A program made the position numbers and the translations under genes. Below are positions 11,735 through 30,580 of a DNA stretch of 36,099 nucleotides, piece after piece; positions within the stretch are counted from its first letter, which is position 1; each line of letters starts with the position of its first letter. The notes below the pieces were generated by a model. It made no database searches. It worked only from the letters and a program-made list of their open reading frames with translations, and was not told the DNA's origin. Source of the DNA: Candidatus Micrarchaeota archaeon (GTDB lineage Archaea > B1Sed10-29 > B47-G15); the NCBI GenBank assembly GCA_003660975.1, contig QMVG01000008.1, positions 1-36,099 of the forward strand, in the 5' to 3' direction.

Positions 11735-13002
11735 TGTATCATCAGACCTACTGCCATAAACAGGCTTAGAAGGCTTATCACAACAGTTAAAAACATTTGC
11801 TTAGCGGAATACTTTATTATCTCTACAGTGCCATTGAGATAACAGAGCAACCATGCAAAGCATATGCTTCCCGCATTTGCCAAAAACAGCGCAAAGGTAG
11901 CTGTTAAAGCGTCTATATTGCCAGAGCTGAGAAGACCCGCTATTGAGATGGAGGTTGAAGTGCTGCTTATCACACCGCCCACAAAGGCAGTTATAAGGAA
12001 GACCCCAAAGTTTACTTTTCCAGCAAGGTCTAAGAGCACAAAGAGGAAGAATATCCCTAATCCCAGCTTCGCGGCAACCTTGACATTAAAAGGAGATTCA
12101 ACAGTTATCGGTTTTATCTCCTTTTTTCTTTGCATTACCTTTCTCAGCGTGTAATATGCAAAGAATATGAACATTGAAATCATCAAGAGAAACGGTAGAA
12201 AAGCATAATCGAGCACCTGTGGCGCAGGCATTGCTACTATAATGAGATTTCTAAGGGATAGCCCTGCATTTATGGTAAAGAATGCAGCCAGTATGCTTGC
12301 TAGCCTCTTTTTATTCTCTTTGTAAAAATTGCTTACAGCCATTGTAGCTGCTATTGAACTCATCATACCTCCAAGAAAGCTTATTATCTCTATTTGATAA
12401 CTGCCTCTAAGGAAGCGGGCAGAGAGAAAAGCTATAAAATTTATTAAAGAAACCAGCACAATAAGGGCCCAGATCAATAAGAGAGGCAGTTTTATACCGT
12501 AAAGAACAAGTTCTCTTGGGATTATTGGATATACAATGCCAAGCAGTATGAGAAATTCAAGTAGGTCCCCTACCTCTTTTTGCGTCAAGTGCTTTACTAT
12601 TTGGTGTAACCTTTCCCGCGAGAAGAGAATAACAGCCACCGCTATTGACAAAAAGATGGCTTCAAAAAACATGTCATAGCCAACCATAACTCCAAGGATG
12701 TATGTAATAATAACAGATATACATGTAGTGAAGCCAGGTCCTTTTTTTCGTATCAAACTGTTTACATAGATTACAATAGCAAATATAGAGATAAAAGCCA
12801 AACCAATAGCAGTAAATAATGTGGAAGCATAACTGACAACCTCCTCAGGTATGACAACAGTCATGGTTCCCAAAAGTGAAATAAGGGCAAAGGTCCTAAG
12901 CCCCATAATCTCCTGCTTTTTGTGATACTCTCTTTCCATGCCGAGTAATGCCCCTATGAATATTGAGAGCAATATCTCCTGAAGAAAAGAGTACGTTATC
13001 AT
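11731..13002 (-). CDS. MgtC/SapB-DUF4010 membrane protein
   Basis: GALLGMERE..GLRTFALISLLG, GFTT, GG.ISST. Confidence 0.85.
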   Translation of the reverse strand: MITYSFLQEILLSIFIGALLGMEREYHKKQEIMGLRTFALISLLGTMTVVIPEEVVSYASTLFTAIGLAFISIFAIVIYVNSLIRKKGPGFTTCISVIITYILGVMVGYDMFFEAIFLSIAVAVILFSRERLHQIVKHLTQKEVGDLLEFLILLGIVYPIIPRELVLYGIKLPLLLIWALIVLVSLINFIAFLSARFLRGSYQIEIISFLGGMMSSIAATMAVSNFYKENKKRLASILAAFFTINAGLSLRNLIIVAMPAPQVLDYAFLPFLLMISMFIFFAYYTLRKVMQRKKEIKPITVESPFNVKVAAKLGLGIFFLFVLLDLAGKVNFGVFLITAFVGGVISSTSTSISIAGLLSSGNIDALTATFALFLANAGSICFAWLLCYLNGTVEIIKYSAKQMFLTVVISLLSLFMAVGLMIH

Positions 13003-13766
13003 CTTTCTCCTCCTGCTTTATGAATTGCAGACGCGATGCGCTTTATTAGCTCAGCGTTCTTTTCAGCATTTTCAACAATGTTGCCAGTTACAATGATGTC
13101 TGCCCCAGCTTTTACTTTTTGATAAGCTGTTTTTTCGTCTCTTATGCCTCCACCAACTATTAAGGGTATCTCAAGAACCTCTTTTGTTGCTTTTATAACA
13201 TTATCAGGTACTGGTGTAGGGGCACCAGAACCTGCTTCTAAGTAAACCACCTTCATACCTAAATATTGGGCTGCTAAGGCATATGAAGCAGCAATTTTTG
13301 GTTTGTTTGGCGGTATGCCGTTCACATCACCGTAGAAAGCAACGCTTGATTTCACAGGCGACTCCATGACAATATATCCCATTGGAATTGCCTCTATGTT
13401 CGCTTTATAAACGCTAAATGAGGCCAATGCCTGAGCCAAAGAAAGCCAATAGCGAGACCTTGAGTTCATCAAGGTCATGAAATATATAGCATCTGCATAA
13501 GGCGAGATTTGTGAAACACCTCCAGGAAAGATAATCACAGGCAAATTGCTGCCCTTCTTTATTGCCTTTATGCACATATCAATCTGCTCTCTGTCAACAC
13601 TGGAGCCCCCTACCATTATAGCGTCAACGCCAGAGTCCTCAATTATCTTGGCAGTCCTCATCACATCATGGCTATTGTTGAAATTGTCCTGGTCTATAAG
13701 GGCCATGTGCAATGCTCCTTTTTCTTTAATCCCTTTAATTATGTAGTCGTATACGTCGTGTTTCAT
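12999..13766 (-). CDS. geranylgeranylglyceryl phosphate synthase
   Basis: DAIMVGGS, PVIIFPG, YLEAGSGA, VGGGIR, GADIIVTG. Confidence 0.93.
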   Translation of the reverse strand: MKHDVYDYIIKGIKEKGALHMALIDQDNFNNSHDVMRTAKIIEDSGVDAIMVGGSSVDREQIDMCIKAIKKGSNLPVIIFPGGVSQISPYADAIYFMTLMNSRSRYWLSLAQALASFSVYKANIEAIPMGYIVMESPVKSSVAFYGDVNGIPPNKPKIAASYALAAQYLGMKVVYLEAGSGAPTPVPDNVIKATKEVLEIPLIVGGGIRDEKTAYQKVKAGADIIVTGNIVENAEKNAELIKRIASAIHKAGGER

Positions 13767-16482: not shown

Positions 16483-17235
16483 ATGAAGAGGGTTAAGACA
16501 GGCATATATGGTCTTGATGAGCTGATAGAAGGCGGATTTCCAGCAGGCAGGACAGTGCTTGTCTCTGGCGGCTGCGGGACAGGCAAAACAATATTCTCTA
16601 TGCAATTCGCATACAGGGGAGCAGTTGAATTTGATGAGCCTGCTGTTTTTGTTACTTTGGATGAAAGACCAAAAATGATAAGAGAGGATATGCTTAGGTT
16701 TGGCTGGGATTTAAAGAAAGCAGAGCAGCAGGGAAAGTTTGCAATTTTGGATGCAAGTGCTGCCAAGGTTGGCTTTCCATCTGATGAGAAATATACTCTA
16801 CCGCAAAGCGGGATAGATATTGATAAGCTTTTAATGAAGATTATGGACATAAGTCAGCAAATGGGGGCAAAGAGGGTTGTGATTGACTCCATAGCTGGCC
16901 TGGGCTTGCAGGCAGAAAATGTAAATGAGATAAGAAAAACAATTTTAAAGCTGAATTACCTTCTTTTAAAAACCAATTACACAACTGTTATAACAAGCGA
17001 AATTGCAGAGCAGTCTTTTGAGAGTGGCCCAATGATGTTCTCTAAATACGGTGTTGAAGAATATGTAGCAGACGGCCTTATAGTATTGCACTATTTGGGC
17101 ATAGGCACACAGTCCAATAGGCAACTGTATATAAGGAAGATGAGGGGAACTAAGCACTTTGAGGATTTAATACCTATGGAAATTACTCCAAAAGGCATTG
17201 TAGTGAAAAAGCCAGAAGACGAGTATAAAATTTAA
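16483..17235 (+). CDS. single-domain KaiC/RAD55-like ATPase 1
   Basis: TGIYGLDELIEGG, GGCGTGKT, RVVIDS, KMRGT. Confidence 0.92.
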   Translation: MKRVKTGIYGLDELIEGGFPAGRTVLVSGGCGTGKTIFSMQFAYRGAVEFDEPAVFVTLDERPKMIREDMLRFGWDLKKAEQQGKFAILDASAAKVGFPSDEKYTLPQSGIDIDKLLMKIMDISQQMGAKRVVIDSIAGLGLQAENVNEIRKTILKLNYLLLKTNYTTVITSEIAEQSFESGPMMFSKYGVEEYVADGLIVLHYLGIGTQSNRQLYIRKMRGTKHFEDLIPMEITPKGIVVKKPEDEYKI

Positions 17236-17690
17236 AACGTTCTCTTGTATGTGGAAGATGACAGCATATCGTAAATCTCGTAGATTTCAGGGAATTCCTC
17301 GTAAAGGCTGTTTATAAAGTCGCTCTGCTCTTCCATGTTTTTTGTCTTAACGTTGATTAGAAACCTCCACTCTCCTGTTAATGAGTATATCTCCTTTATT
17401 TCATTTTTTCTTTCAAGCTTCTTTATTAAATCCCTGATTTTGCTTCCAGCCTTTACCTTTAGCAATATATAACTGTTTACGTAAGGGCCTGCTTTTTCAT
17501 AGTCTATCACAGGCATGAAAGCTTTTATTATGCCTTCCTCTTTCATTCTCTTTATTCTCGAGTGCACTGTTGCAGTTGGTTTGCCTATAAGCTTGGCTAT
17601 TAACGTGGCATTTGCTGATATTGCGTCTTTATTTCTCATAGCTTCAAGTATCTCCTGATCCAAGGCATCTAGGTCTGTCATGTATTTCAT
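17232..17690 (-). CDS. Lrp/AsnC transcriptional regulator
   Basis: LDALDQEIL, TVHSRIKRMKEEGII, YSLTGEW. Confidence 0.9.
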   Translation of the reverse strand: MKYMTDLDALDQEILEAMRNKDAISANATLIAKLIGKPTATVHSRIKRMKEEGIIKAFMPVIDYEKAGPYVNSYILLKVKAGSKIRDLIKKLERKNEIKEIYSLTGEWRFLINVKTKNMEEQSDFINSLYEEFPEIYEIYDMLSSSTYKRTF

Positions 17691-17942
17691 TTTGCCTAGA
17701 ATAATATATAAAGCTTACCAAGAGTTGGGTATTTTTATGTAAATTTTACAGACAAATTTAGATGTATGTCTAAATAAACAGCGAATTTGTGTTATTTTAA
17801 GCATTGTGCAATTATTTTTTAATATAAATGTTCAATAAATATCGTTTCTATGTGCTGTTTTTTCAAGGGTGCTATTTGTTGAATAATTACCAAAACATTT
17901 ATATATAAGAATAAATAATAACTATACATCCGTATTTTGAGA

Positions 17943-18009
17943 CTGGGTGAGCCTTCTCCTCCTCGCAGCGAATTCGGCGAGGAGGAGCCGAATTTTCTCT
18001 CATCGTTCC
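17943..18009. repeat. 67-bp GC-rich structured repeat, copy 1 (candidate sRNA core)
   Basis: CTGGGTGAGCCTTCTCCTCCTCGCAGCGAATTCGGCGAGGAGGAGCCGAATTTTCTCTCATCGTTCC; 66/67 identical to 21881-21947. Confidence 0.95.
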
Positions 18010-18096
18010 ACCATATCACCTCCCCCAATGAGAAGGCTCACCTTTCTTTACCTTTTATAGTTATTATTTTAAACCATCTATTCCTTATTTTCTACA

Positions 18097-18879
18097 ATGG
18101 CAATTGAAAGGGAACCTACAGGCATACCTGGCTTTGATGAGTTAATAGAAGGTGGTTTTCCGAGATACTCAATAGTGCTCGTCAGCGGGAGCCCTGGCAC
18201 TGGGAAATCCCTTTTTTCGCAGCATTTTGTATATACGGGAGCGACAAAATTTGAGCAAAAAGCCTTGTATGTCTCTTTTGAGCAAAGGATACCTGAAATA
18301 TATGAACAGGCAAAAAGGTTTGGCATGGACTTTGACCTTTTAGAAAAGCAGGGCAAGGTAAGGTTCGTCTTTTATGACATAAGCAACAGGGTGCTGGGAG
18401 AAGGAGAAACATACGTTGAGCTAATAAAGAGGGAGGCAAGAGAGTTCAATGCTAAAAGGATAGTGATAGATTCTTTAGTTCCTTTAGCCAACTTCCCCGT
18501 TTCTGTTGATGAGCTCGCTTCATACGGATTTATAAACGAAATAGACAAGTTAATGCCCATAGGCATAAGCGAGGAACTGCTTGTGAGAATGCAGGTACAT
18601 AAACTGATGAGCACATTAAAGGACCTAAGAGCCACCTCAATAGTTGTATCTGAAATACCAAAAGAGTCAAACTGGCTTTCAAGGGACAGGGTTAGTGAGT
18701 TTATGGCAGACGGAGTTATAGTATTGCACTATTTGGGCATAGGCACCACCTCCAACAGGTCTTTAGTCATAGAGAAAATGAGAGGCACGAAACACGCTGA
18801 AGACGTCATCCCAATGGAAATAGGAAAGAATGGCATTGAAGTTAAAAACCCCAGGGACGAATTCAAAGTGCCCAAATAA
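18097..18879 (+). CDS. single-domain KaiC/RAD55-like ATPase 2
   Basis: TGIPGFDELIEGG, GSPGTGKS, RIVIDS, KMRGT. Confidence 0.92.
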   Translation: MAIEREPTGIPGFDELIEGGFPRYSIVLVSGSPGTGKSLFSQHFVYTGATKFEQKALYVSFEQRIPEIYEQAKRFGMDFDLLEKQGKVRFVFYDISNRVLGEGETYVELIKREAREFNAKRIVIDSLVPLANFPVSVDELASYGFINEIDKLMPIGISEELLVRMQVHKLMSTLKDLRATSIVVSEIPKESNWLSRDRVSEFMADGVIVLHYLGIGTTSNRSLVIEKMRGTKHAEDVIPMEIGKNGIEVKNPRDEFKVPK

Positions 18880-18881
18880 GT

Positions 18882-19463
18882 TTACTTAAAAAGGTGTGGC
18901 AATTGTCTTTTAGTTATGTTAGAATTTAGATCAAAACCTGTTGCTGGTTTGGTTATGAATTTACAAATTTTGTCTCCAGCAGACACACAATTCGTCTCAA
19001 CCACTTCAAGATTATTTATCCCAAAGGATACCCTTAGCTCACCAGCAATGAATCCTCTAATGATGTGACATGAAGGCTCATTCGATTTTTTAGCTTTAGC
19101 ATACTGTGAATTTTCACATATATTTATAAAATAATTATTTTCTAAATCAGCTTTATATACCTCCCATTTTCCCCAACCCCCCATGGATGAAATGTCCATC
19201 AATAGCTTGGCAAGCTTAAAACCAGACAGCCTGGTTTCTTCTTTATAAAGCAGAGCTATCTTTTTACCTGTTTCTATTCCTAGATTATACATAAATGAAA
19301 TTCCTTCTTTTCCTAACCGTTTTACTATCTCTTCTTCCATACTTGCAAAGGGTCTCGCAGGAAAGATTACATGGGGCGCACCCAAAATACTAAACATACC
19401 ATCTTCAATAGTAAACTGTCTCGCAAACATAAGCTTCTTAGCCAAACTACTTACAGACACCAT
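18882..19463 (-). CDS. V4R-domain ligand-binding protein
   Basis: GWGKWE, PSCHIIRGFIAG, ETNCVSAGDKICKF; start ATG 19463 or GTG 19469. Confidence 0.85.
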   Translation of the reverse strand: MVSVSSLAKKLMFARQFTIEDGMFSILGAPHVIFPARPFASMEEEIVKRLGKEGISFMYNLGIETGKKIALLYKEETRLSGFKLAKLLMDISSMGGWGKWEVYKADLENNYFINICENSQYAKAKKSNEPSCHIIRGFIAGELRVSFGINNLEVVETNCVSAGDKICKFITKPATGFDLNSNITKRQLPHLFK

Positions 19464-19465
19464 AT

Positions 19466-20398
19466 TCACCTTGAATCAAACTTTCTTTTTTTTATTAAGA
19501 ACAATATGAAGACAGAAACTAAAATGATGAAAACAGATTTTACATTAGTCGCTGTTAATATTAATGTTAACATCAAAAAAGCATTAGCATACAAAAAACC
19601 TTCAGTATGTGTTTTTTCTAAAAGATCGAATGATTTATACTTCATTATGTTATTAATAACCAGCAACAGAGGAAGCAACATAACGAGCAAAATTGCAAAT
19701 TTTACCTCGATTAATCCAGAGCTTATTAGCATTACGAAGAGGGGATAAGGACTGAGTAGAATTATAGATGTTGCCATCTTGGCTCTGTCTAATGTTTTGA
19801 ACACTGTGGCAGTCGTTTTCAGACCAGCCAACAGATCTCCTTCAAAATCGGGCAGGTTTTTTACAGTCCCGTACGTTAAAAACCAATAACCAATTGCCAT
19901 TCCTATTACAGGAAATTCAAATATGTTCTTATTTATACTCCATGCAGCTAATAGAGGTAAAAAAACAGCTCCCGAAAAGGATATAAGGCTCATTAGGGGT
20001 TTAGTTTTGAACCTTAATGGAGGTAAAGAATAAAAAGCAGAGTCAAATACTGCTAATAAGTAAATGAGCAAAAATTGCAGCGGAAGGGGTACAGCTAATA
20101 TGAATCCGCAGATATAAAGAATTAGAGCAGCTTTTAAAACATTTTTTCTACCAATTTTCATCACTGTTTTGAACCTATTTGGTAAGTTTATCTTATCTTC
20201 TTCAATGTCAGTATATGCATTAATGATGTTCGTACTTGCTACGACACATATAAATGCAGACAAACCAAATAATTCATAGAATATATTATTACCAGAACTT
20301 AAAAACCATCCAATATAGTAGGATAAAATAATGAATATCCATGTTCTGGGTCTTCCAAGCTTTATAAGTTCCACCAACACATTTAAGCGGTTTTTCAT
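19466..20398 (-). CDS. UbiA-superfamily membrane prenyltransferase
   Basis: RP motif, NAYTDIEEDKINLPNR, YSLPPLRFK, KNLPDFEGD..G.KT. Confidence 0.88.
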   Translation of the reverse strand: MKNRLNVLVELIKLGRPRTWIFIILSYYIGWFLSSGNNIFYELFGLSAFICVVASTNIINAYTDIEEDKINLPNRFKTVMKIGRKNVLKAALILYICGFILAVPLPLQFLLIYLLAVFDSAFYSLPPLRFKTKPLMSLISFSGAVFLPLLAAWSINKNIFEFPVIGMAIGYWFLTYGTVKNLPDFEGDLLAGLKTTATVFKTLDRAKMATSIILLSPYPLFVMLISSGLIEVKFAILLVMLLPLLLVINNIMKYKSFDLLEKTHTEGFLYANAFLMLTLILTATNVKSVFIILVSVFILFLIKKRKFDSR

Positions 20399-20676
20399 TT
20401 CAACATCTCATGAATGAACCTTATCTTTTCAATTTCATGAGGCCAAATCACCACGGCCCTATCTATTTTTTTGGTATGTACCTTCTCCTCCTGTTTAAGT
20501 TTGTTAACATGGTATGAGATTCTTGCCACAACCCTTTTCTGATGTTCTCCATCTGGATTAAGGCCCAATTCTCTTGCTATGCCACTTATATTGATGGGCC
20601 AATGTTTTTCTATTACCCGATATATCTCTATTCTACCTATTTTTGATATATCCAAACTATTTCTCTTTTTTTCCAT
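20395..20676 (-). CDS. small winged-helix HTH regulator
   Basis: PINISGIARELG...ISYHVNKLKQEEKV. Confidence 0.75.
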   Translation of the reverse strand: MEKKRNSLDISKIGRIEIYRVIEKHWPINISGIARELGLNPDGEHQKRVVARISYHVNKLKQEEKVHTKKIDRAVVIWPHEIEKIRFIHEMLK

Positions 20677-20740
20677 ATAAAATTAGATAACAGAACAATA
20701 TTTATAAACTTTTGCATGGATTTGTCTAGATATATCCAAA
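20641..20740. promoter_or_regulatory. leaderless promoter of the HTH-UbiA-V4R operon with repeated quasi-palindromic operator
   Basis: TTTATAAA 20701-20708, about 25 nt before ATG 20676; GATATATCCAAA at 20645-20656 and 20729-20740. Confidence 0.5.
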
Positions 20741-20750
20741 ATTTTTTAAT

Positions 20751-21590
20751 CTATGCTAATTGATGGCCATAGGCTTTCTTCGGAGTAAACAGCTCGGTGC
20801 TTGCTTCCTCGGCCTTGTTCCAAAGCCTTATGAAGTAGTCCTCAAAGTTTCTAACAATGTCTGGATCTCTCACTACATTGACGCTGTATATCTGATTGCC
20901 TTCTGAAAGAGCAAAGCCAACTGCCTTGTTATCTATTACAGCAAACGTTGTTCCACTATTCGGCAGCATCTTAACCAACGTGTTTGGCCATGAAAGCAGG
21001 GGAAGAAATTTATTTAATTCTTCATCACTTAGTTCCAAGTTCTTTGGTATAATCAAACGAACTTCTATACCTCCTCTGAGTTTTTCATTTAATGTTCTGA
21101 CTAACTCAATACTTCTAATGCCTTTTTTGTATGTCGCAGTTCCTCCTATTATGTATACATGACTTTCTGCATCAACTATATGTCTTGCCAACTCTCTGAA
21201 AACAGGATTTTCGCCGATGATATAATAGTTCTTCTTTGTAACTCCATTTACTGATGTCTCTTTCAACAGTTTTTTCACTAAACCGATCGTCTCTTGCTTC
21301 CTATTTTCCAAGTCTCTTATCATTTCTCTGTGTTTTGATATCATCTTGTTTATGATTTCTACGATATCCATTGCTTTGTATCTTTTCGGCCTTCCAAGTG
21401 TCTGCTTCACGAAACCCATGTCATCAAGGGAGTCAAGTACAGCATAGACCTTCGTTTCTGGTATGCCCCCATATTTGGAGATGTCTTTGGCTGTTGACTC
21501 AGACCTCTCAAACAACACAGACAAGGCCTTTGCCTGGTACTCTGTAAAGCCAAAACTCTTTAGCTTTTCAACTAAATCTATATTCAACAC
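20751..21590 (-). CDS. TrmB-family regulator
   Basis: FGFTEYQAKA, GIPETKVYAVLDSL, GRPKRYKA; PLD-like effector domain. Confidence 0.9.
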   Translation of the reverse strand: MLNIDLVEKLKSFGFTEYQAKALSVLFERSESTAKDISKYGGIPETKVYAVLDSLDDMGFVKQTLGRPKRYKAMDIVEIINKMISKHREMIRDLENRKQETIGLVKKLLKETSVNGVTKKNYYIIGENPVFRELARHIVDAESHVYIIGGTATYKKGIRSIELVRTLNEKLRGGIEVRLIIPKNLELSDEELNKFLPLLSWPNTLVKMLPNSGTTFAVIDNKAVGFALSEGNQIYSVNVVRDPDIVRNFEDYFIRLWNKAEEASTELFTPKKAYGHQLA

Positions 21591-21606
21591 TCACCACCCC
21601 CACCAG

Positions 21607-21741
21607 TGATTTTAAGTAAATCAGGCGACTGAAAAAAGAAGAAAGCGGTAGCATACCTGGGAAGATTTCTTGTTGTGGCCCAGGACCATTACTTGAGGTT
21701 TTCTGAAAAAACCTCACATAGCGCATAAGTCCTTCAGCCCT
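21607..21741 (-). ncRNA. candidate structured leader/ncRNA upstream of the TrmB gene
   Basis: TATA 21763-21770; four stems visible (see finding). Confidence 0.45.
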
Positions 21742-21880
21742 TGTTAATATGTGCTAAAATTATTTATAAATCTTTCTAACTGGTTTTAACCAATAATCGA
21801 TAATTTTAACCATTGTCTAAAAAGATTTGATAAAAAAACTTTTTAAATTAATTGAGACAAAAGAGAAAATAGCAGATCTG

Positions 21881-21947
21881 CTGGGTGAGCCTTCTCCTCC
21901 TCGCAGCGAATTCGGCGAGGAGGAGCCGAATTTTCTCTTATCGTTCC
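21881..21947. repeat. 67-bp GC-rich structured repeat, copy 2
   Basis: Direct repeat of 17943-18009 with one C/T difference; offset 3938 bp. Confidence 0.95.
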
Positions 21948-21984
21948 CATTCAAACAGTTCTTTTGCTTTCTCTATAGGCATTG

Positions 21985-22563
21985 TTAAAAGAGGTTTGCG
22001 CATCTTATAATCCGCCCTTTCCCTGCTTTTTTCTGTTCCTCTTTACTACCGAAATACCCCTTATGTTTGATAAGTCTCCTCCTAATGTCCTCCTCCTTCT
22101 TTTTCATAGGACCCCACAGCGCATGTCTCATTTCACTTGGATTCTCTTCTATATATCGCTTTACTTTTCTTAAGTCAATAATCACCTCCTCCCCTGCTGC
22201 TTTAACAATTAGGAGAGGCACCACTTCTTTTCCCTCAAGGTTTTTTATGCGTGTGTTTATGATTTTGTCTAACTGTTTCTGGGTTAATCTAAGTCTGCCA
22301 TCTGTACTGTGCTTAACCTCAACAGCAACAGGAACGCCTCCAATCTCCCCGAAAAAGTCAGGACTAGAAAAAGCCACTCGCTTTAAATTATATTTCTCAA
22401 CAATTTCTCTCTCTGCCTCGTTTCCAAAGATGACAGCCTTCTTTGATCTGCTTGCTTTTGGGTCAGGCGATCTATGTCTCAAGGAGCCCTTCATCTCCAA
22501 CGGCAGTGTTTCTTGAATTTTTAGAGGCAGTTTCTTATCTGCTCCCCTCTTTCTACGCCTCAT
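21985..22563 (-). CDS. PD-(D/E)XK nuclease-like protein (possible C-terminal frameshift)
   Basis: GNEAE...SPDF...VAVEVK; start placed at ATG 22563. Confidence 0.65.
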   Translation of the reverse strand: MRRRKRGADKKLPLKIQETLPLEMKGSLRHRSPDPKASRSKKAVIFGNEAEREIVEKYNLKRVAFSSPDFFGEIGGVPVAVEVKHSTDGRLRLTQKQLDKIINTRIKNLEGKEVVPLLIVKAAGEEVIIDLRKVKRYIEENPSEMRHALWGPMKKKEEDIRRRLIKHKGYFGSKEEQKKAGKGRIIRCANLF

Positions 22564-22635
22564 AACATTATTACAATATAAACAAATAAAAACTTTCCTC
22601 AAAGCTTATTATTGAGATAATATATAACAAAACTC

Positions 22636-23562
22636 ATGCCGAGATTAGAACCCATAAAACAGATTAAGTTGTCAAAGATGTCTGTTGATGAGCTTATCAG
22701 GGCTTTTGGCAAGGCCTCGTCTATGGGAGCAGGAAGATTGGCTGAAGCCGTTGACATCTACGAAAAGATGATAAGAGATAGGGATTGCAAGATATTCTTT
22801 GGCATCGCTGGTGCAATGGTCCCAGCAGGTCTTAGGTATGTCATACACGATGTCCTTATAAATAACTGGGCAGATGTTTTTGTCTGCACTGGCGCTACTC
22901 TCACACATGACTTGATAGAGGCATTGGGCCATAAACACTATAAAGGAAGTCCTGATTTGGATGATGCTTGGCTGAACAAACTTGGCCTTGACAGGATATA
23001 TGACTCTCTCATGAGCAACAATGTTTATCCAGACCTTGAGAAGCATGTTAAAAGAACAGTAAAGAAGATTCCAGAGCAAGAGATGGGCATCTCAGAGTTT
23101 TTGAGATATTACGGAAAGTATTCTCCAAAACACAGCATACTGAGAATTGCATATGAAAAAGAGATTCCCCTCTTCTGCCCAGCTCTGCAGGATTGCGGTT
23201 TTGGCATAATGGTTCACTACGCTATAAAGCAGTTTGGTGGGCCGACGATAAACGTTTTCAAAGATTTGGATGATATATTTGACATCTCATGGGAAGCAAA
23301 GAAAAAAGGAAGTGTTGTGGTGGGAGGTGGCGTTCCGAAGAATTTTATAATGCAGTCCTTTCAATTCTCACCAAAGCCCGCTGATTACGGCATACAGTTG
23401 ACAATGGACAGGCCTGAGCCAGGAGGAAGCTCTGGGGCCCCTCCCAGAGAGGCAGTTAGTTGGGGAAAGTTTAAGCCAAAGGCAAGCTTTGTAAATGTTG
23501 TCAGCGATGCCACCATAACCTTCCCCATTATAATAGCTGCACTTAAAGAGAGGCTACTTTAA
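22636..23562 (+). CDS. dys: deoxyhypusine synthase
   Basis: AGAMVPAGLR, GGGVPKN, GGSSGA..EAVSWGK. Confidence 0.92.
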   Translation: MPRLEPIKQIKLSKMSVDELIRAFGKASSMGAGRLAEAVDIYEKMIRDRDCKIFFGIAGAMVPAGLRYVIHDVLINNWADVFVCTGATLTHDLIEALGHKHYKGSPDLDDAWLNKLGLDRIYDSLMSNNVYPDLEKHVKRTVKKIPEQEMGISEFLRYYGKYSPKHSILRIAYEKEIPLFCPALQDCGFGIMVHYAIKQFGGPTINVFKDLDDIFDISWEAKKKGSVVVGGGVPKNFIMQSFQFSPKPADYGIQLTMDRPEPGGSSGAPPREAVSWGKFKPKASFVNVVSDATITFPIIIAALKERLL

Positions 23563-24075
23563 GATGTATCCTCTCTTAACCAATTCGTCAAAAATCATTC
23601 TGAACCATGGCGTATATTTTTCGGGATATTTTTTCATGTCCTCTGCCACGAACTTTACACTTTCCCAAGAATAGCCGTCAGCTTCATTGGGGTCAGGGCA
23701 TATCCTTCCATTATACTCTCCCATGAACACATGGTCCATTTCGTGTTCTGTCAAGCCATGGTCCAGCTCTGCTCTGTACTTGAACGTGAAAAGCTCTTCC
23801 AGTTCAGCGTCAAATCCCATTTCCTCTTTTAGCCTCCTATGAGCTGCTTCTATTGTTCTCTCTCCAGGTCTCGGGTGGGTGCAGCAAGCATTGGACCAAA
23901 GGCCACCTGCATGGTATTTTGACTTTGCCCTTTTCTGCAGTAGCATATCTCCATCTTTATTAAGAATTATTATTGAAATGGCTCTATGCAAGAGAGCTTT
24001 TCTGTGCACCTCTATTTTCTCTCCAGTACCTATTTGATTGTCGTTTTCATCAACCAATATCACTATTTCAGTCAT
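23554..24075 (-). CDS. idi: type 1 isopentenyl-diphosphate isomerase
   Basis: LLHRAIS, WSNACCTHP, RRLKEEMG, EHEMDHVF, YTPWF. Confidence 0.93.
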   Translation of the reverse strand: MTEIVILVDENDNQIGTGEKIEVHRKALLHRAISIIILNKDGDMLLQKRAKSKYHAGGLWSNACCTHPRPGERTIEAAHRRLKEEMGFDAELEELFTFKYRAELDHGLTEHEMDHVFMGEYNGRICPDPNEADGYSWESVKFVAEDMKKYPEKYTPWFRMIFDELVKRGYILK

Positions 24076-24093
24076 AATCCCTCCTCCATAAAA

Positions 24094-24906
24094 TTAACGT
24101 AATCTTATCACAGTTCCTCTTTTAATTTCTCCCCTCAGTGCGTCTTTTATATTTCCCTCTTTTTCAGCATTTATTACAACAGCCTCAACATTCACTCCTT
24201 TTTTGAGAAGTTCAATTATCTCCATTACCTTCCCGAACATGCCCCCTGTAACATCAACAGCAGATGAGCCGCCAAGCATTCTTTTTATTTCATCAAAATT
24301 TTCACTGTTTATTTCAGGTATCAATCTTGCATTTGGCTCTTCTTTTGGATTAGCAGTAAAGATGCCATCAACATTTGTTCCATGTATTATCTTTCTCGCG
24401 TTTAATTTCTCAGCTAAGAAAGGCGCTATTTGGTCTCCAGACAGTATAGAGCATTTCTGCTTCCTGTCATAAGCAGGCACCCCGTATAGCACAGGGATAA
24501 GGCCAATACTGAGAAAACCTTTTATTGTTTCAACATCCATCTTAACAAGCCTGCCTGCTTCCATCACAGCGTGAGAGGATGCAAGAACAGGGATAGCAGG
24601 CAAACCTTTTTCAATTAAAACCTTCGTCACTATGGAATTCAATTCATTTTGCAGCCTTTGTGTTTCAGCAAAAGCCAGCAATTGCTCATAGTTATTTATG
24701 CCTTTATGTATCCCTGTTTTCTTGACTATCTGGTGGCCATAACTACCAGCACCGTGAATTAGGATAAGAGACATGCTATCTTTGTCATACGCCTCCGCTA
24801 TTTCCGAGGCGATCCTATGCAGGACTTCAAGATTTACCTTGGGCGTCTCGCTGTGCTTGTCTGTTATTACGCTACCCCCTATTTTGAGTATCGCTAAATT
24901 ATTCAT
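24094..24906 (-). CDS. ipk: isopentenyl phosphate kinase
   Basis: LKIGGSVITDK, HGAGSYGH, SGD, DVTGGM..K. Confidence 0.93.
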   Translation of the reverse strand: MNNLAILKIGGSVITDKHSETPKVNLEVLHRIASEIAEAYDKDSMSLILIHGAGSYGHQIVKKTGIHKGINNYEQLLAFAETQRLQNELNSIVTKVLIEKGLPAIPVLASSHAVMEAGRLVKMDVETIKGFLSIGLIPVLYGVPAYDRKQKCSILSGDQIAPFLAEKLNARKIIHGTNVDGIFTANPKEEPNARLIPEINSENFDEIKRMLGGSSAVDVTGGMFGKVMEIIELLKKGVNVEAVVINAEKEGNIKDALRGEIKRGTVIRLR

Positions 24907-25285
24907 TAACCCTCACTTCATCTCCTTTTATTTCAATATCATCATCAGTTTTTATTTTAGATATGTCTATTTTATCTAGCATTGTTATATTGGATATTAT
25001 CGCGCCAACTGCTATTATGGCCTCGCTCTCTTCACATAGAATTGCAAGAGGTGCCTTTCCATTTTTCTTCAACCTGTACATCGTATAGCTGCCAACAGTA
25101 GAGCCCTTACCTGTTGGAAAGACCAGTATTTTATTTGCCACGCTTTTTCCCTCTAATGGATGCCCTTTTTCAATAACAACGCCTGTTTCAGGGTCAATGT
25201 TCCCATAAAAACCTATCGGCTCCTTTGACACAAGCGCTTTTCCCCTTACATGACCTTCCTTTATTACCCTAGCTTTTAGTATCAT
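24899..25285 (-). CDS. phosphomevalonate dehydratase small subunit (AcnX/DUF126)
   Basis: IDPETGVV...HPL.G, GKGSTVGSY. Confidence 0.9.
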   Translation of the reverse strand: MILKARVIKEGHVRGKALVSKEPIGFYGNIDPETGVVIEKGHPLEGKSVANKILVFPTGKGSTVGSYTMYRLKKNGKAPLAILCEESEAIIAVGAIISNITMLDKIDISKIKTDDDIEIKGDEVRVNE

Positions 25286-26492
25286 ACCAAGCACCTCTAA
25301 TGGCAGCATTAATGCATTCGTCGGTGCTACCAAACTTTATCTCAAAGCCCTGATTTCTGAGATACCATAAGTACTTTCCTGAATTTACTGCTATGTGTTT
25401 AAATCCAAAGCTTTTCATTGGAGCAACAACAGCACACATATCTGACAGTATCTTGCCTCCTGCCTTCTCTATAAGCTTATCATATCCTGCTCTCTTTGCA
25501 ACCTCTTTGACAGGCTTTGAGCTTGTTATCCATATAGGAACTTTTAGCTTGCTGCCTTTTACTTTAGATGCAATGTACTTAATTTCCTCAATGCTGGCAT
25601 GAGGACAACCAAAAACCACAAGGTCCAATTCATTTCCACCACTGTTTAATTCAGCGTAAATCTCTTTTAAGTCATCTGCTGTAAATGTAAGCTCGTCATA
25701 ATCTTCTGAGAGCATCTCAGCAGCCCTTGCCTCAGCTGTTATGCCTTCAATATGATACAACGCAATGCCTCCACTGGCAGCAGCAGCTGCTCCCAGCTGT
25801 TTTAGCAAGTCATTGTCTGCCTTCTTTATGCCTGTAAAAAAAGGCACAGCGTTTTTTAGTTTGATCCCAGTCCAATATCCCAGAGCACCGAAATCAGAAA
25901 AGCTCTCTACTTCTACCTCTACATTTACTTTGTATTTGGCCTTTCTGTTCTCATCTAAGTGGTAACCATAAGCAGCTGTTTTTCCGCAGATTGCAGAGGC
26001 TAGAGCACTAGGCCCTCCCTCTCTATTTGTTCTGGCTCCTATGACTGAATTGGCAAAGCTAACAGCAGAGGACTCTCCCCATGCAATGTGGTCTCCAAAC
26101 TTTGGCACATTCCCTGCTAAATACGGCGTGCAGGTGCAGGTAGGCGTTATGCCCAAACTTTTGAATACTTCTATCACTTTGAGCTGTTTTTCAGAAAAGC
26201 CCTTATCAAAGCCAACCTCTGCCCAGTCATCAAGGTCTATGCCTGCTGGGTTGAGCGTTGTCGGAACAGTGACAGTGGCACCTGATGAAGCCCAGTCTTC
26301 AAGGAATTCAAGCCCTGCTTCACCAAGGTTTTTGTAGCTGACTCCAGAAACCTGAACGCTTGTAATCGGAAGCAGTCTCTCTGCTTCATATATCTTTGCA
26401 AGGGCAACAATAATCTCCAAAGCCCTTTGCCTTGCCTCGCCCATTTCTCCGTTTAGCATGGCTTCCTCTTCTCTCGTTAAATACAAAGTCAA
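25269..26492 (-). CDS. phosphomevalonate dehydratase large subunit (AcnX/DUF521)
   Basis: SGVSYKN, TCTCTPY, ESSAV.FANSV.GARTNREGG, GCPH. Confidence 0.92.
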   Translation of the reverse strand: MTLYLTREEEAMLNGEMGEARQRALEIIVALAKIYEAERLLPITSVQVSGVSYKNLGEAGLEFLEDWASSGATVTVPTTLNPAGIDLDDWAEVGFDKGFSEKQLKVIEVFKSLGITPTCTCTPYLAGNVPKFGDHIAWGESSAVSFANSVIGARTNREGGPSALASAICGKTAAYGYHLDENRKAKYKVNVEVEVESFSDFGALGYWTGIKLKNAVPFFTGIKKADNDLLKQLGAAAAASGGIALYHIEGITAEARAAEMLSEDYDELTFTADDLKEIYAELNSGGNELDLVVFGCPHASIEEIKYIASKVKGSKLKVPIWITSSKPVKEVAKRAGYDKLIEKAGGKILSDMCAVVAPMKSFGFKHIAVNSGKYLWYLRNQGFEIKFGSTDECINAAIRGAWYDTKS

Positions 26493-27793
26493 ATGTAATC
26501 CTCCTTCTTTACTGTTTCATAATCCGTTCTTATAAAATCCTTCTTACTCTTGTCAAACGGAATTGTGGCATCTACACCTACTTTTGTTGTGTAATGAATG
26601 TCATCTACTTCATACCTTGAGGGGTCAAGAGAAGAACCCTTTTGCTTTTCCATTATCACTAAATCTCTATGGGCCTGAAATCTTGTAGCTATGGCCCATT
26701 CAACGTCATATGGGTTGTAAATGTCAATATCCTCATCAACGACTACGCAATGCTTCATGCTTGTATGTCCTCTAAAAGCAGCCTCTATTGCCCTTTTTCC
26801 GTCATCTTCTCTTTGCTTCGCAATCTGCACTATACCATGCAGCCAGGAACAGCCTCCAGGAGATATAAGCACATTTTTGCATTTGCATACTTTTGAAACC
26901 TCCTTGTATATTGTCGGCTCTCTTGGCATGCCCATTAATATCTTGTGCTCGTTTTTGCCAGGAAGCAATGCTTGCATGTATGGCTTTTTTCTATGCGTTA
27001 TCTTTTTAATCTCTATCACTGGCTGTTTCCTTACAATATCATAGGTCCCTGTCAAATCAAGGAAAGGACCCTCGTCTGCTTCCTCATCTATTATACGACC
27101 TTCAAAGATAAACTCAGCATCAGCAGGAACTTCAACGTCAACTGTTTTGCACTTAACTAAAGGCGTTTCCTCAATAGCATTTGCCATTGAAAGCTCGTCC
27201 TCGTCTTTTGCTATGCTAGTGGCAGCTGCTATCATCACGTTTGTTGCGTTGCCCACAGCTATCGCCACATCCAGCTCTCCGCCTGCATTTTTCAGGGCAG
27301 TGTCTGTGCCTCTTCTGGGAATTATCCTCGCAACAAAGCTGTTTTTCGATATCTGCATTAACCTGTGATAGCACATATTCCTTCCGTTTTCAGGGTCATT
27401 TACTATAACAAGAGCGCAGGTAAGATACCTGCCGCCATCATTTGGCAAGTATTTCGGTATTGGCAGTGCATCCAAATCAACGTGCTTCTCAACAACTTCC
27501 TGACATGCTCCTTTTTTAAGAATTTCAGCTTCCTTTGGCTTTTCCATAGCTGATAGAATTGTCTTTAATATCTGCTCCTTTTTCACTTCTAAAGCTTCTG
27601 CTACGAGTTCACGTGATGAGTTTACATTTATAACAACAGGGATATCATAGCCTTTTACTTTTTCAAATAAAATCGCCTGCCCATCAAAGGCACTGGCAAC
27701 CTTTGCCAGCTCAATGTTGCAGTCAACCTCTCTCTTTACCTTAATCAGATCGCCCTTTGAGTCCAAATATTCCAAAAACTCCCTAAGCTTCAC
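26489..27793 (-). CDS. UbiD-family anhydromevalonate phosphate decarboxylase
   Basis: EGPFLDLTGTY, GGCSWLH, VVVDEDID..VEWAIATR, GSSLDPS; operon context; start placed at GTG 27793. Confidence 0.88.
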   Translation of the reverse strand: MKLREFLEYLDSKGDLIKVKREVDCNIELAKVASAFDGQAILFEKVKGYDIPVVINVNSSRELVAEALEVKKEQILKTILSAMEKPKEAEILKKGACQEVVEKHVDLDALPIPKYLPNDGGRYLTCALVIVNDPENGRNMCYHRLMQISKNSFVARIIPRRGTDTALKNAGGELDVAIAVGNATNVMIAAATSIAKDEDELSMANAIEETPLVKCKTVDVEVPADAEFIFEGRIIDEEADEGPFLDLTGTYDIVRKQPVIEIKKITHRKKPYMQALLPGKNEHKILMGMPREPTIYKEVSKVCKCKNVLISPGGCSWLHGIVQIAKQREDDGKRAIEAAFRGHTSMKHCVVVDEDIDIYNPYDVEWAIATRFQAHRDLVIMEKQKGSSLDPSRYEVDDIHYTTKVGVDATIPFDKSKKDFIRTDYETVKKEDYI

Positions 27794-28319
27794 TTTTCCA
27801 CCTCTTATATAAATTATTCTCAATGCCCAAGATGTCCAAGACCTTTCCGACAAAGAAATCAGTTATATCCTCAATGCTTTTTGGCTTGGTGTAGTATGCA
27901 ACATTTAGCGGGAGAACATATGCGCCTGATAATAACACTTTACGTAAATTTTCAACATACGGCAAACTGTACGGCGTTTCTCTTGGACACAGGATAAGTT
28001 TTCCCTTTGTCCTCAACACGATGTCTGCCACCCGGCCTATCAGATTGTCTGAGTAATTATTAGCTATAGAGGAAAGCGTTTTTGAACTGCAAGGACATAC
28101 TACAAGGGCATCAGGAGCATTTGAGGAAGAGGCGATGTCTGCATCTATTTCTGAGGCATTGTAGTCAAAGTCAATAATATGTCCTAATTCGTGTTTCATT
28201 ACCCTCTTTGATGCTTCTGACACTATAATAGAAAGCTCTACATTTTTTCTCAATTGTTCACTCAATCTAAGGGCCACAGGAGCGCCACTTGCGCCTGTGA
28301 TTCCCAAGATTACACGCAT
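27783..28319 (-). CDS. ubiX: flavin prenyltransferase
   Basis: GITGASG, PCSSKTL, PRETP. Confidence 0.92.
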   Translation of the reverse strand: MRVILGITGASGAPVALRLSEQLRKNVELSIIVSEASKRVMKHELGHIIDFDYNASEIDADIASSSNAPDALVVCPCSSKTLSSIANNYSDNLIGRVADIVLRTKGKLILCPRETPYSLPYVENLRKVLLSGAYVLPLNVAYYTKPKSIEDITDFFVGKVLDILGIENNLYKRWKSEA

Positions 28320-28325
28320 CCTATC

Positions 28326-29405
28326 CTATACCTCCCTATTTATTAGGTATTCTGCTATGCCTATGAGATATTGCTTTGCTTCCTCAGCAAGCTCCACATT
28401 TTCTATTGCCTCCAAGGCCTCAGAAGCCAGCTCTCTTGCTTTATTTCTAGTGTAATCCAAAGCTCCTGTGTCCCTCATAATCTGCTTTGCTTCCTCAATC
28501 TCTTGCTCAGTTATATGCAGTTTTCCCAATAGGGACAGCAATTTCTTTTTCTGCTCAGGTGAGCCTTTCTCCAGAGCCTTTATAACCAGAATTGTTTTTT
28601 TACCATCTCTCAAATCACTGCCCACAGGTTTACCAAGCTTTTTCACATCTCCAAACATGCCTAAAATGTCATCCTGCAGTTGAAATGCCTGGCCAAGAGG
28701 AATAGCATAGTTGCTGAATGCCTCTCTCTGCTCTTCACTTCCTCCTCCCAATGCCCAGCCCATAAGCAATGGGGCTTCTATAGTGTATATGCTTGTTTTT
28801 GTTTTGTGTATATTCATCGTATGTTCCTCTGTGACCTCCTCTGCTTTCATCTCTTCTGATAACATGTCAAGAAACTGGCCGAAGTTTGTTGACTGGTTGG
28901 CATACTCATACACTTTGAGCGCTTCAACAATCCTTGCCTGGTCAAAACCAGAATTTAAAAGTGCTTCAACAGCTAGGCTCTGCACATAATCACCAGCTAT
29001 GATGGCCATTCCTTCTGAAAAACGCTTTGCCCTCATTTCGCTGCCTTGAAAGTGTTTTTTGTAATAATCCAGGTAAGCAACGTGCAAAGTGGGCCCTCCT
29101 CTCCTCAAATCATCCTGGTCCATAATATCATCATGGATCAGGAAATATCCCTCCATGAGTTCTATTGACGCAGAGGCTTTGTATATCTTATCCATCTCCT
29201 TTCCACCAACCCCCTCATAAGCAGCCACCATAAAAGCAGGTCTCAATCTCTTGCCTCCTCTCATGTTGTAGTCTCTAATCCATTCCAGATAATCGGCTGC
29301 TCCTGGGTACTCTTTTTTTGCATTTTCTATTTTCTCATCGAGCAATCGCTCTAACTCATCATTTATTTTCTCCCTGTATTCAGAAAGCTTTTTCAAAACA
29401 TCCAT
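28326..29405 (-). CDS. short-chain trans-prenyl diphosphate synthase A
   Basis: GGKRLRP, YFLIHDDIMDQDDLRRG, FQLQDDILG, GKPVGSDLRDGK. Confidence 0.92.
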   Translation of the reverse strand: MDVLKKLSEYREKINDELERLLDEKIENAKKEYPGAADYLEWIRDYNMRGGKRLRPAFMVAAYEGVGGKEMDKIYKASASIELMEGYFLIHDDIMDQDDLRRGGPTLHVAYLDYYKKHFQGSEMRAKRFSEGMAIIAGDYVQSLAVEALLNSGFDQARIVEALKVYEYANQSTNFGQFLDMLSEEMKAEEVTEEHTMNIHKTKTSIYTIEAPLLMGWALGGGSEEQREAFSNYAIPLGQAFQLQDDILGMFGDVKKLGKPVGSDLRDGKKTILVIKALEKGSPEQKKKLLSLLGKLHITEQEIEEAKQIMRDTGALDYTRNKARELASEALEAIENVELAEEAKQYLIGIAEYLINREV

Positions 29406-29415
29406 AATATCCACC

Positions 29416-30504
29416 TTAGAAGTCTCTCTCAACTATAAATCTGGTGAAAGCCTCAAGAGCCTCTTTTGCTCTGCCTTCCTTTAACAGGCCATTTACGTTT
29501 TCCCATGTCTCATTTACAAGCTCTCTTGCAAACTGCTTTGCATATTCTATAGAGCCGTATTTCTTCATGAGCTCTATTGCCTTTTTTATTTTTTCTCTGT
29601 CCTTTGTGTGCTCATTTAGTGTTTTTAGAAGCCATTCTTTTTCCTCATCTGTGCAATGCTTTAAGGTGTGCACTACCATTAATGTTCTCTTTCCCTCTGT
29701 TATGTCGCTTCCTATATATTCTTTCGTGTATTGGGCTTTGCCACTGGTAGCTGTTAAGTTTAAGATATCATCTTGTATCTGAAATGCTATTCCTATGGTC
29801 TCTGCATACTCTCCTATTTTTCTTTCATTTTCCTCGTCCAGGCCTGCCAGGACAGCAGCCATCCTTGCAGCCATTCTTGCCAATGTGCCTGTCTTGTATG
29901 CACACATCTGCAGATACTGCTCTTCAGTTATGTTGTCTGCATCGCCATGGCCATTGTGCCAATATATGTCTGTTCCCTGGCCAATGGAAATGTTTATCAT
30001 TTCCTGTGCATAGATGTCATACAATCTCTTCAACGTTTTTTCATCAACGCCAGGTCTGTTTTTAAGTATAGACACAAGAGGAAAATAATACATGCTATTG
30101 CCAAAGTTGATTGCGATGTCCTCCCCATACTTTATGTGCGCAGCTGGAAGCCCTCTTCTTGTCTCTGATTTGTCCTCTATGTCATCTATAACCAGTGTTC
30201 CGTTATGGACTAATTCTGGAATGATGGCAAAGTCAATATATCTGTTTGCATCTCCCCCTAAAGCTTCTATTAGGAGCATGAAGAGGACAGGTCTCCATCT
30301 CTTGCCCCCTGTTTCTAAAAAATCCCACATAGGTTCTATTATCGCTTTATTTACTGCTTCAACATCATATTCATACCTTGCCTTTCCAGCTATCTTTTCA
30401 ATGTCTTCTTTTGTCATTGGCTTTGGAAAATAACTTCGGATCATTCCATCTATCAGGGGTTTTTTCTGCTTCAAAATATCCGTAATTTTTATTTTGTCTG
30501 ACAT
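29416..30504 (-). CDS. trans-prenyl diphosphate synthase B (type III GGPPS-like motifs)
   Basis: GGKRWRP, HNGTLVIDDIEDKSETRRG, GQGTDIYW, FQIQDD; AGGTGA Shine-Dalgarno. Confidence 0.92.
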   Translation of the reverse strand: MSDKIKITDILKQKKPLIDGMIRSYFPKPMTKEDIEKIAGKARYEYDVEAVNKAIIEPMWDFLETGGKRWRPVLFMLLIEALGGDANRYIDFAIIPELVHNGTLVIDDIEDKSETRRGLPAAHIKYGEDIAINFGNSMYYFPLVSILKNRPGVDEKTLKRLYDIYAQEMINISIGQGTDIYWHNGHGDADNITEEQYLQMCAYKTGTLARMAARMAAVLAGLDEENERKIGEYAETIGIAFQIQDDILNLTATSGKAQYTKEYIGSDITEGKRTLMVVHTLKHCTDEEKEWLLKTLNEHTKDREKIKKAIELMKKYGSIEYAKQFARELVNETWENVNGLLKEGRAKEALEAFTRFIVERDF

Positions 30505-30580
30505 TTCTATATCACCTAAAACTCGTAATACTCTTTTTTGTGAGCGACTATATATAAAATTAACCACGTCAATTGTAGAA

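Follow-up and report, generated by a model that had tools for sequence, protein, structure and literature searches.

In bacteria, several small RNA (sRNA) genes lie divergent from the gene of their own transcription factor, as in the pairs OxyS/OxyR, GcvB/GcvA and SgrS/SgrR. Here, we examine an archaeal locus of this outline: two near-identical 67-nt intergenic repeats in a 36,099-nt stretch of DNA from a Candidatus Micrarchaeota archaeon (assembly GCA_003660975.1, contig QMVG01000008.1, positions 1 to 36,099; the whole stretch is called the window). Judged by sequence and predicted structure, the twins belong to a structured RNA family that lies beyond Rfam and that we did not find in print, a new family of a known general kind. 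We consider it probable, at roughly 0.6, that the repeats are paralogues of one small structured RNA module with a regulatory role.

The repeats, which an earlier note on this DNA had described, are 66/67 identical, differ solely at C18001 versus T21939, start 3938 bp apart and form the sole long near-perfect direct repeat of the window. A BLAST search of the whole assembly (labelled G000; 1,333,875 bases, 130 contigs, 89.7% complete) returned these two copies only, the remaining matches being the repeat's own internal palindrome. The cores have a G+C content of 51-52%, the local windows 34-39% and the whole window 39%, and the edges of identity between the copies are sharp. There is no sign of an assembly duplication as far as contigs show: Logan contigs from runs X1 and X2 carry the distinct flanks of both copies, with separate contigs that begin at 17971 and 21909 and diverge past a shared 30-mer, while both runs are possibly the genome's source, and possibly one data set, so that they are not independent support. 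In two further runs, X3 and X4, stretches without cover carry no information.

Family membership is indicated by R1, a covariance model built from eight look-alike elements of four genomes (G003, G012, G016 and G017), all in f4, the sister family to the window genome's family, with the window copies excluded; its E-values are rough because calibration was shortened. Run on the whole window genome, R1 picks both copies and nothing else (39.0 bits for copy 2 and 37.6 bits for copy 1, next match 16.4 bits), and an a-type RNA on contig C5 that has 17 nt in common with the copies reaches only 14.7 bits. The earlier note had counted a lack of homologues, together with a lack of transcription and excision, as evidence against its proposal; R1 matches at E <= 0.01 occur in 5 of the 31 genomes of the phylum (a single class makes up the whole phylum), namely the window genome and 4/6 genomes of f4. 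Outside the phylum 1/30 genomes has such a match (25.6 bits, E 0.0042), which is chance level. Two of the 14 matches in all are opposite strands of one place: G003:C6:3915-4006 is a palindromic variant that scores 33.0 and 23.4 bits on its two strands.

The homologues share more than a score. The 12-mer TGGGTGAGCCTT occurs 3-5 times per genome in the four training genomes (control word 0-1), and eight of those places have the build of the window copies, in which a box precedes the motif with its UU, and a hairpin, C(A/G)AAUUCUC and U-runs come after. In f4 the box consists of an A-run and TTTATAAA/TATTTAAA, 43-50 nt 5' of the motif, and across the family a box resembling a transcription factor B recognition element (BRE) and TATA box stands ~35-50 nt 5' of it. 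The motif itself, UGGGUGAGCC followed by UU, forms invariant columns in 11/11 rows of A2, a MAFFT alignment that includes both window copies; we refer to this unpublished family, delimited with R1, as c-type UGGGUGAGCC RNA. A further word, GCGAATTC, is present in 6/8 f4 elements (loci L089, L098, L104, L107, L109 and L110), within their 5' leader and close to the predicted start site. The same word is self-complementary and in the window copies is the apical-loop word (17968-17976). G005 holds a degenerate look-alike under the R1 threshold with a divergent AsnC gene 255 nt away. G000:C1:131015-131050 (GGGTGAGCCTTCTGCGGAGGACGGCTCACGCCC) may be a degenerate family member; there the motif pairs with a complement of its own that lies downstream, like that of copy 1.

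Which parts of the fold are conserved? In the R1 alignment, a G+C-rich hairpin, P2, starts right after the UU with a CCUCC/GGAGG-like base in both copies. Its arms differ between the window (CUCCUCCUCG / CGAGGAGGAG) and f4 (CCUCCCCCUG / CGGGGGAGG) and still pair, as do other f4 arms (CCUCCCUCGG/CCGAGGGGGG and CCUCCCCUGG/CCAGGGGAGG). Over the 14 matches in the model-fitted alignment, 90.6% of cells are paired and 8/16 pairs vary on both sides, whereas shuffles average 4.0 such pairs and 1/500 of them gets to 8; if the partner is slid by 1-3 columns, 0-3 two-sided changing pairs are left. P2 accounts for such changes in 6/10 of its model pairs. The P2 arms change in a compensatory way, a sign that selection acts on a folded strand rather than on a fixed protein-binding DNA word. 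RNAalifold on A2 predicts a second helix, P1', in which the motif pairs with the tail (A/G)AAUUYUCYC, a pattern that the window tail GAAUUUUCUCU meets in the R1 alignment. Changes in P1' are mostly one-sided, from G-C to G-U, which favours the + strand as the RNA strand. The earlier proposal that the repeats are paralogous small RNAs, their scaffold conserved and their ends variable, is supported by the shared architecture and the compensatory changes in four other genomes.

The sequence details given in the earlier note are right: the 11-bp helix CTCCTCCTCGC / GCGAGGAGGAG exists (3' arm placed here at 17977-17987), as do the 8-bp alternative AATTCGGC / GCCGAATT (17971-17978 / 17987-17994), both outer stems, the A/T-rich BRE/TATA-like boxes and the T-rich tracts (Table 1). 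Its description of the core as bistable, however, is unsupported. The main fold of the 67-mer has -26.6 kcal/mol versus -18.6 for the best fold containing AAUUCGGC/GCCGAAUU, the alternative helix makes up ~2e-6 of the ensemble at 37 C, and the homologues keep the main helix only. What does differ between the copies is the outer stem, of 13 bp in copy 1 only and of 10 bp in copy 2 only. The stretch 17925-18060 folds with a minimum free energy (MFE) of -45.2 kcal/mol (z -5.2), and the 13-bp stem of copy 1, if formed, may sequester the motif.

How could such a module work? Each copy would have a BRE/TATA-like promoter of its own, and transcription would run on the + strand from a start ~12-20 nt 5' of the motif. 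The RNA would fold into one extended hairpin in which UGGGUGAGCC pairs loosely with the tail to form P1' and, past a small internal loop, P2 stands on its CCUCC/GGAGG-like duplex. U-tracts would end a short RNA of ~70-115 nt, and where a gene follows closely the element would act as its 5' leader. The invariant motif is probably a recognition surface for a conserved partner, either a protein or another RNA, and the copy-specific flanks would present it differently, copy 1 with a sequestering stem and copy 2 with a closing one. The layout, in which the copies are divergent from genes for winged-helix regulators (Lrp/AsnC at copy 1 and TrmB at copy 2), suggests that these regulators would control the RNAs.

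The gene neighbourhood recurs with the elements. Lrp/AsnC or TrmB is the adjacent divergent or downstream gene at 6/12 element places (Table 1), TrmB genes flank c-type elements in G003 and G012, and further neighbours are deoxyhypusine synthase (DHS), KaiC, Nudix, flavin mononucleotide (FMN)-dependent dehydrogenase families and polyprenyl synthases. The order on G012:C10 is Lrp, GAD, element, DHS, KaiC, element, and a G012 element lies 118 nt 5' of DHS. These G012 twins lie 2.1 kb apart, are 46/49 identical in the core, have unlike 5' flanks and bracket DHS-KaiC, a twin arrangement like that of the window; the G012 KaiC shares 49% identity with the second KaiC of the window and 32% with the first, and the G012 Lrp is 36% identical to the window Lrp. 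As relatives hold elements at the same two kinds of position, divergent from Lrp/AsnC and upstream of DHS, the window copies look like old, positionally conserved paralogues. Their near-identical cores between unrelated flanks would then reflect homogenisation, by gene conversion or shared selection, and not an insertion scar. In X4, a run with a relative, one low-depth contig joins 21934 to 22588 with 9 extra letters and skips exactly the 205-aa open reading frame (ORF) between copy 2 and DHS; if this joint is real, the relative may have copy 2 ~57 nt from the DHS start and lack the ORF.

Several points weigh against the reading as a regulatory RNA module. Transcription, strand, start and end are all inferred from the DNA, and the sequencing runs listed for this DNA include no RNA run. 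The family spans just two taxonomic families, so that the covariation comes from few lineages, and the alignment fitted to R1 (A4) leans toward pairing and contains kin that are not independent. The f4 homologues were first located with a 12-mer taken from the window, and that share of the model score is built in; the independent part, from features that did not steer the search, is only ~23 bits above the C5 control. No trans target was found: with <=2 mismatches to the complement of CUGGGUGAGCCUU there are 21 places besides the elements, with no pattern except 16S helix 11, and tRNA Phe is the sole tRNA matching the 10-mer complement (2 mismatches). A drop in read depth between the copies, discussed below, is left unexplained by an RNA. 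Finally, a gene on the same strand follows no more than 180 nt past 6 or 7 of the 12 elements, and at two of them (G017:C23 and G016:C30) the start codon of an Lrp/AsnC gene with its own Shine-Dalgarno follows 25-28 nt past the element, which leaves no promoter room. A cis-acting leader thus fits the elements as well as a stand-alone RNA does.

Could all elements act in cis, as 5' leaders similar to attenuators or riboswitches? They would then be co-transcribed with the KaiC-like gene (copy 1) or, ancestrally, with DHS (copy 2), and a ligand or protein at the UGGGUGAGCC internal loop would pick between a stop at the U-tract and read-through. The close downstream genes just mentioned fit this account, and the motif-sequestering 13-bp stem of copy 1, followed by T-runs, resembles an expression platform. 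However, genes as dissimilar as Lrp/AsnC, TrmB, DHS and KaiC lie downstream, which does not resemble the regulon of a metabolite riboswitch, and 3/12 elements (two in f4 and window copy 2) face convergent genes and have nothing to regulate in cis. A/T-rich TATA-like boxes separate the starts of KaiC and DHS from the elements, and no conserved junction that resembles a ligand pocket was identified. As an explanation for the whole family we regard leaders as possible but doubtful.

The c-type elements have wider kin. The repeat opens with 17-18 nt, (G)CTGGGTGAGCCTTCTCC, that are found again at G000:C5:60606-60623, where they end a 41-53-nt stretch shared with C1:141796-141848. Within the phylum set, TTGGCTGGGTGAGCC with <=1 mismatch is found in 20/31 genomes (reversed control word, 1 genome) and TTGGCYGGGTGRGCC in exact form in 18/31 (control, 0). 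In these a/b-type elements a 5' strand rich in purines pairs with a 3' strand rich in pyrimidines, and between the two lie a variable middle and then the motif. The elements usually occur in pairs, at a spacing of 275-780 nt, past two PRC-barrel genes and ahead of AsnC-/XRE-type regulators. Their helix is locus-specific, with own-flank duplexes averaging -22.9 kcal/mol against -19.0 for swapped flanks; 0/5000 permutations reach the observed mean, a figure that overstates the case as kin are not independent. An opposite-strand reading frame common to 18 related a-type loci was not found, a test made in a-type elements only. The word YCACCTCC(A/G), akin to the anti-Shine-Dalgarno-like ATCACCTCC in the 3' extension of copy 1, comes after many a-type elements.

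The a/b-type motif UUGGCUGGGUGAGCC is complementary to 16S rRNA GGCUCACCAAGCC(A/G)A at 13/15 positions in the window genome and 14/15 in G016, always with one central G-A mismatch; the site lies in helix 11 (G000:C5:73334-73346 and L057). This complementarity, which shrinks to ~8-10 nt in the c-type, could reflect a guide, a mimic or coincidence. The boldest extension would unite c-type and a/b-type elements in a phylum-wide superfamily in which UGGGUGAGCC docks one shared partner and pairs with 16S helix 11 or competes for its protein, the c-type elements serving also as gene-conversion boundaries of a strain-variable block. We regard this as very improbable; if true, it would link the expression of regulator and lipid genes to ribosome assembly.

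The earlier note had also suggested REP-like (repetitive extragenic palindromic) or recombination sites that mobilise the enclosed cassette, whose genes it named as KaiC, V4R, UbiA, a helix-turn-helix (HTH) protein and TrmB. Pfam confirms KaiC, V4R, UbiA and TrmB; the 93-aa "HTH" ORF has no Pfam or NCBIfam match. As att-like scars, ends of miniature inverted-repeat transposable elements (MITEs) or REPs, or gene-conversion boundaries around a strain-variable KaiC-V4R-UbiA-TrmB cassette, the repeats would account for their sharp identity edges, for the G+C content that is 5-8 points lower between the copies, for the 13-bp inverted ends, present in copy 1 alone, and for the X4 joints 21934>22588 and 24957>21009. 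They might also account for the depth of Logan contig 18717-21897, which is about two-thirds that of the adjoining contigs (X1, 35.2 against 49-58; X2, 31.8 against 43-52); this contig holds the KaiC 3' end, V4R, UbiA, the 93-aa ORF and TrmB, and ends 17 nt into copy 2. Yet the low-depth contig begins in KaiC, at a 31-nt repeat shared with its paralogue, and not at copy 1, while the contig with the right flank of copy 1 and most of KaiC is at full depth (57.5); what lies between the repeats therefore does not vary as one block. The KaiC-like paralogues share a 74-nt stretch (17048-17121 and 18686-18759; 78% identical, with an exact 31-mer) that breaks Logan contigs there. The low depth could stem from coverage bias or from a second strain in which the V4R-UbiA-TrmB block differs, and lower G+C alone could lower depth. 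No joint across the repeats is listed among the X1 or X2 contigs.

The window, moreover, is core chromosome, and no integrase, transposase or recombinase was found among the 41 window ORFs scanned against Pfam, which speaks against attL/attR sites as well. The genome's three Phage_integrase matches (tyrosine recombinases) are on other contigs, Phage_integrase is unmatched in 3/4 f4 genomes carrying elements, and a Y1 transposase is found in 0/5 genomes. With two copies only in the genome, inverted ends in one of them, no target-site duplication in the flanks, a covarying helix and relatives that carry elements at both kinds of site, a MITE/REP or att origin is not supported, and mobilisation of the cassette is unlikely. 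Also very improbable are double-stranded operators for the neighbouring Lrp/AsnC and TrmB genes, with the hairpin merely an inverted-repeat binding site: elements do stand in promoter regions beside regulator genes (6/12), the palindrome CGAATTCG is the centre of the window inverted repeat and GCGAATTC lies near the predicted start site in f4, but the arms vary compensatorily while loop length differs, so that pairing and not a DNA word is kept, the adjacent regulators are of different families (AsnC and TrmB, and XRE-type at b-type elements), which makes a shared operator unlikely, the invariant UGGGUGAGCC is not palindromic, and G-U pairs are tolerated on one strand only.

Searches for a described family agree with the earlier note, which recognised none. 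Rfam 15 at the gathering score gave four tRNAs only over the whole window, three chance snoRNA matches elsewhere with 17700-22200 at E <= 10, one tRNA and one chance match over ten homologue loci at E <= 0.5, and no family for the a/b-type loci. Nor did the 67-mer have a full-length BLAST match in 60 relatives or in any of the 17 other genomes of the same order. Its best partial match, at G011:C2:40129-40153 (L006 1497-1530), is a hairpin in an intergenic-looking stretch without the UGGGUGAGCC motif, CCTCAC-AGCGAATTCG-GTGAGG versus CCTCGC-AGCGAATTCG-GCGAGG in the window, with the same loop and one compensatory change. A metagenome scan with a stem-N11-stem pattern gave 9 loci, all in DNA of 56-75% G+C with unrelated flanks and taken as chance, a 22-mer from the hairpin top gave 0 matches in species-representative genomes, and a 17-mer gave 3 in viral contigs, about the chance number for its length. 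A literature search gave no paper for the motif words and nothing relevant among the papers listed for small RNAs of DPANN archaea or Micrarchaeota.

Known RNA classes were also considered. For C/D-box sRNAs, RUGAUGA and CUGA had 0 matches on both strands of 17900-18070 and 21840-21990. The folds of either copy have no pocket-like internal loop of the H/ACA kind, where ACA words were counted and no dedicated H/ACA test was made. ARAGORN found no tRNA or split tRNA at 9 related loci, RNase P RNA and signal recognition particle (SRP) RNA were located elsewhere in 5/5 genomes, and kink-turn (K-turn), K-loop and bulge-helix-bulge (BHB) motifs did not fit, as judged by eye only. Circular permutation of the a-type RNA was rejected as the parts fail to line up.

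The features are collected in Table 1. In the minus-strand run 18882-21590, TrmB comes first, then the 93-aa ORF, UbiA and V4R. The isoprenoid block 3' of DHS comprises, by Pfam, Nudix, amino-acid kinase, AcnX large and small parts, UbiD, flavoprotein and two polyprenyl synthases; any pathway role is a reading of these Pfam families only. The wider lipid/isoprenoid neighbourhood includes PcrB at 12999-13766 and the block at 23554-30567, and the same families adjoin f4 c-type elements. The rest of the window is housekeeping (SRP54, a second SRP54-type GTPase, Pus10, the PcrB-family gene, LysRS and SerRS). An 85-nt inverted repeat of 92% identity (1626-1710 / 32108-32192) corresponds to two tRNA-Lys genes (UUU, CUU) on opposite strands. 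Elsewhere in the genome, G000:C9:14649-19814 is a CRISPR-like array of ~70 units with a 37-nt repeat (CTTTCAATCTGCC...) that runs to the contig end, and a separate dispersed repeat family (~60-250 nt, 77-94% identity) is unrelated to the twins.

Table 1. Repeat copies, predicted RNA features, neighbouring genes and related places. Positions without a prefix are those of the window.
Feature	Position	Strand	Basis or remark
Copy 1 of the 67-nt repeat	17943..18009	+	Repeat search
Copy 1 BRE/TATA-like box AAAACATTTATATA, 38-52 nt 5' of motif	17892..17905	+	Read in sequence; putative promoter
Copy 1 full R1 match (c-type RNA)	17925..18004	+	37.6 bits, genome-wide E 1.5e-6; E 4e-8 in window, filters off
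Copy 1 invariant motif TGGGTGAGCC	17944..17953	+	Constant in 11/11 A2 rows; also core of a/b-type elements
Copy 1 hairpin P2: 17956-17966 x 17977-17987 and two inner C-G pairs around an AATT loop	17956..17987	+	MFE fold, R1 alignment
Copy 1 tail UUUUCUC, able to pair with motif bases 17945-17951 (P1')	17993..17999	+	RNAalifold consensus on A2, R1 alignment
Copy 1 anti-Shine-Dalgarno-like word ATCACCTCC	18015..18023	+	Read in sequence
Copy 1 13-nt perfect complement of 17946-17958, T-runs next at 18043-18056	18030..18042	+	Copy 1 only
Copy 2 BRE/TATA-like box AAAACTTTTTAAA	21835..21847	+	Read in sequence
Copy 2 full R1 match, including closing stem 21861-21870/21930-21939 and small hairpin AGCAGATCTGCT (21871-21882)	21860..21942	+	39.0 bits, genome-wide E 5.9e-7; fold
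Copy 2 of the 67-nt repeat: motif 21882-21891; P2 21894-21904/21915-21925; tail 21931-21937	21881..21947	+	Repeat search, R1 alignment
T-rich tract 3' of copy 2 (TTCTTTTGCTTTCTC)	21959..21973	+	Read in sequence; candidate archaeal terminator
KaiC-like gene, preceded by RadA	16483..17235		Pfam
Lrp/AsnC regulator, divergent from copy 1, 253 nt off	17232..17690	-	PF01037, PF13412
KaiC-like ATPase, 88 nt 3' of copy 1, same strand	18097..18879	+	PF06745
TrmB-family regulator, divergent from copy 2, 291 nt off	20751..21590	-	PF01978
205-aa ORF between copy 2 and DHS	21985..22602	-	No Pfam/NCBIfam match; protein atlas Hjc/PD-(D/E)XK-like lead, TM 0.47
DHS, next + strand gene past copy 2	22636..23562	+	PF01916
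c-type element with AsnC-type gene, 224 nt, divergent	G003:C13		
c-type element with TrmB 147 nt downstream	G003:C2		
c-type elements with AsnC-type gene ~25-28 nt downstream	G017:C23, G016:C30		Own Shine-Dalgarno
a/b-type element	G000:C5:60578-60630		
a/b-type element	G000:C1:141796-141848	-	
a/b-type loci	L047-L054, L066-L076		
Dispersed repeats	G000: C1:55897-56126, C1:66993-67240, C1:80239-80390, C3:51391-51647		
Dispersed repeats	G000: C4:495-622, C4:29987-30147, C4:56377-56710, C5:48869-49130		

Regulatory RNAs of small-genome (DPANN-type) archaea are little known, and the family described here supplies a concrete, testable case, with a 10-nt invariant motif, a covarying helix, promoter-like boxes and recurrent Lrp/AsnC, TrmB, KaiC-like, DHS and isoprenoid-lipid neighbours. 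If the RNA is made, it would be among the first lineage-specific riboregulators defined for DPANN-type archaea and would offer a handle on how the expression of regulators is matched to that of lipid and translation-factor genes in such reduced genomes. The target is widened by the related a/b-type elements, which about two-thirds of the phylum genomes carry. The locus also illustrates that a repeat pair bracketing a cassette need not signal mobility.

In comparison with known systems, the repeats share with archaeal C/D-box and H/ACA guides a small size, a (here predicted) promoter of their own and G+C richness; unlike those guides they have no C/D boxes, their predicted folds show no pocket-like loop for pseudouridylation, and the 16S complementarity is continuous with one central mismatch. 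Like MITE/REP elements and attL/attR sites they are short, near-identical, sharp-edged intergenic direct repeats flanking a few genes, whereas their number of two, the lack of a target duplication and of a recombinase nearby, positions conserved across families and a compensatory helix set them apart. They resemble the orphan structured RNA motifs in Rfam in their conserved motif, covarying helix and recurrent neighbourhood, and differ from the filed orphans in that the window copies, the f4 homologues and the a/b-type loci are without an Rfam 15 family. Like OxyS, GcvB and SgrS, each would be a short non-coding gene with its own predicted promoter, head to head with a regulator, in which a conserved single-stranded stretch is followed by a G+C-rich hairpin and a U-tract. 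Unlike those bacterial sRNAs, with which there is no sequence relation, the window RNA would be archaeal, with BRE/TATA promoters and oligo-U termination; we know of no Hfq-type partner for it, and its control by the divergent regulator is suggested by position only.

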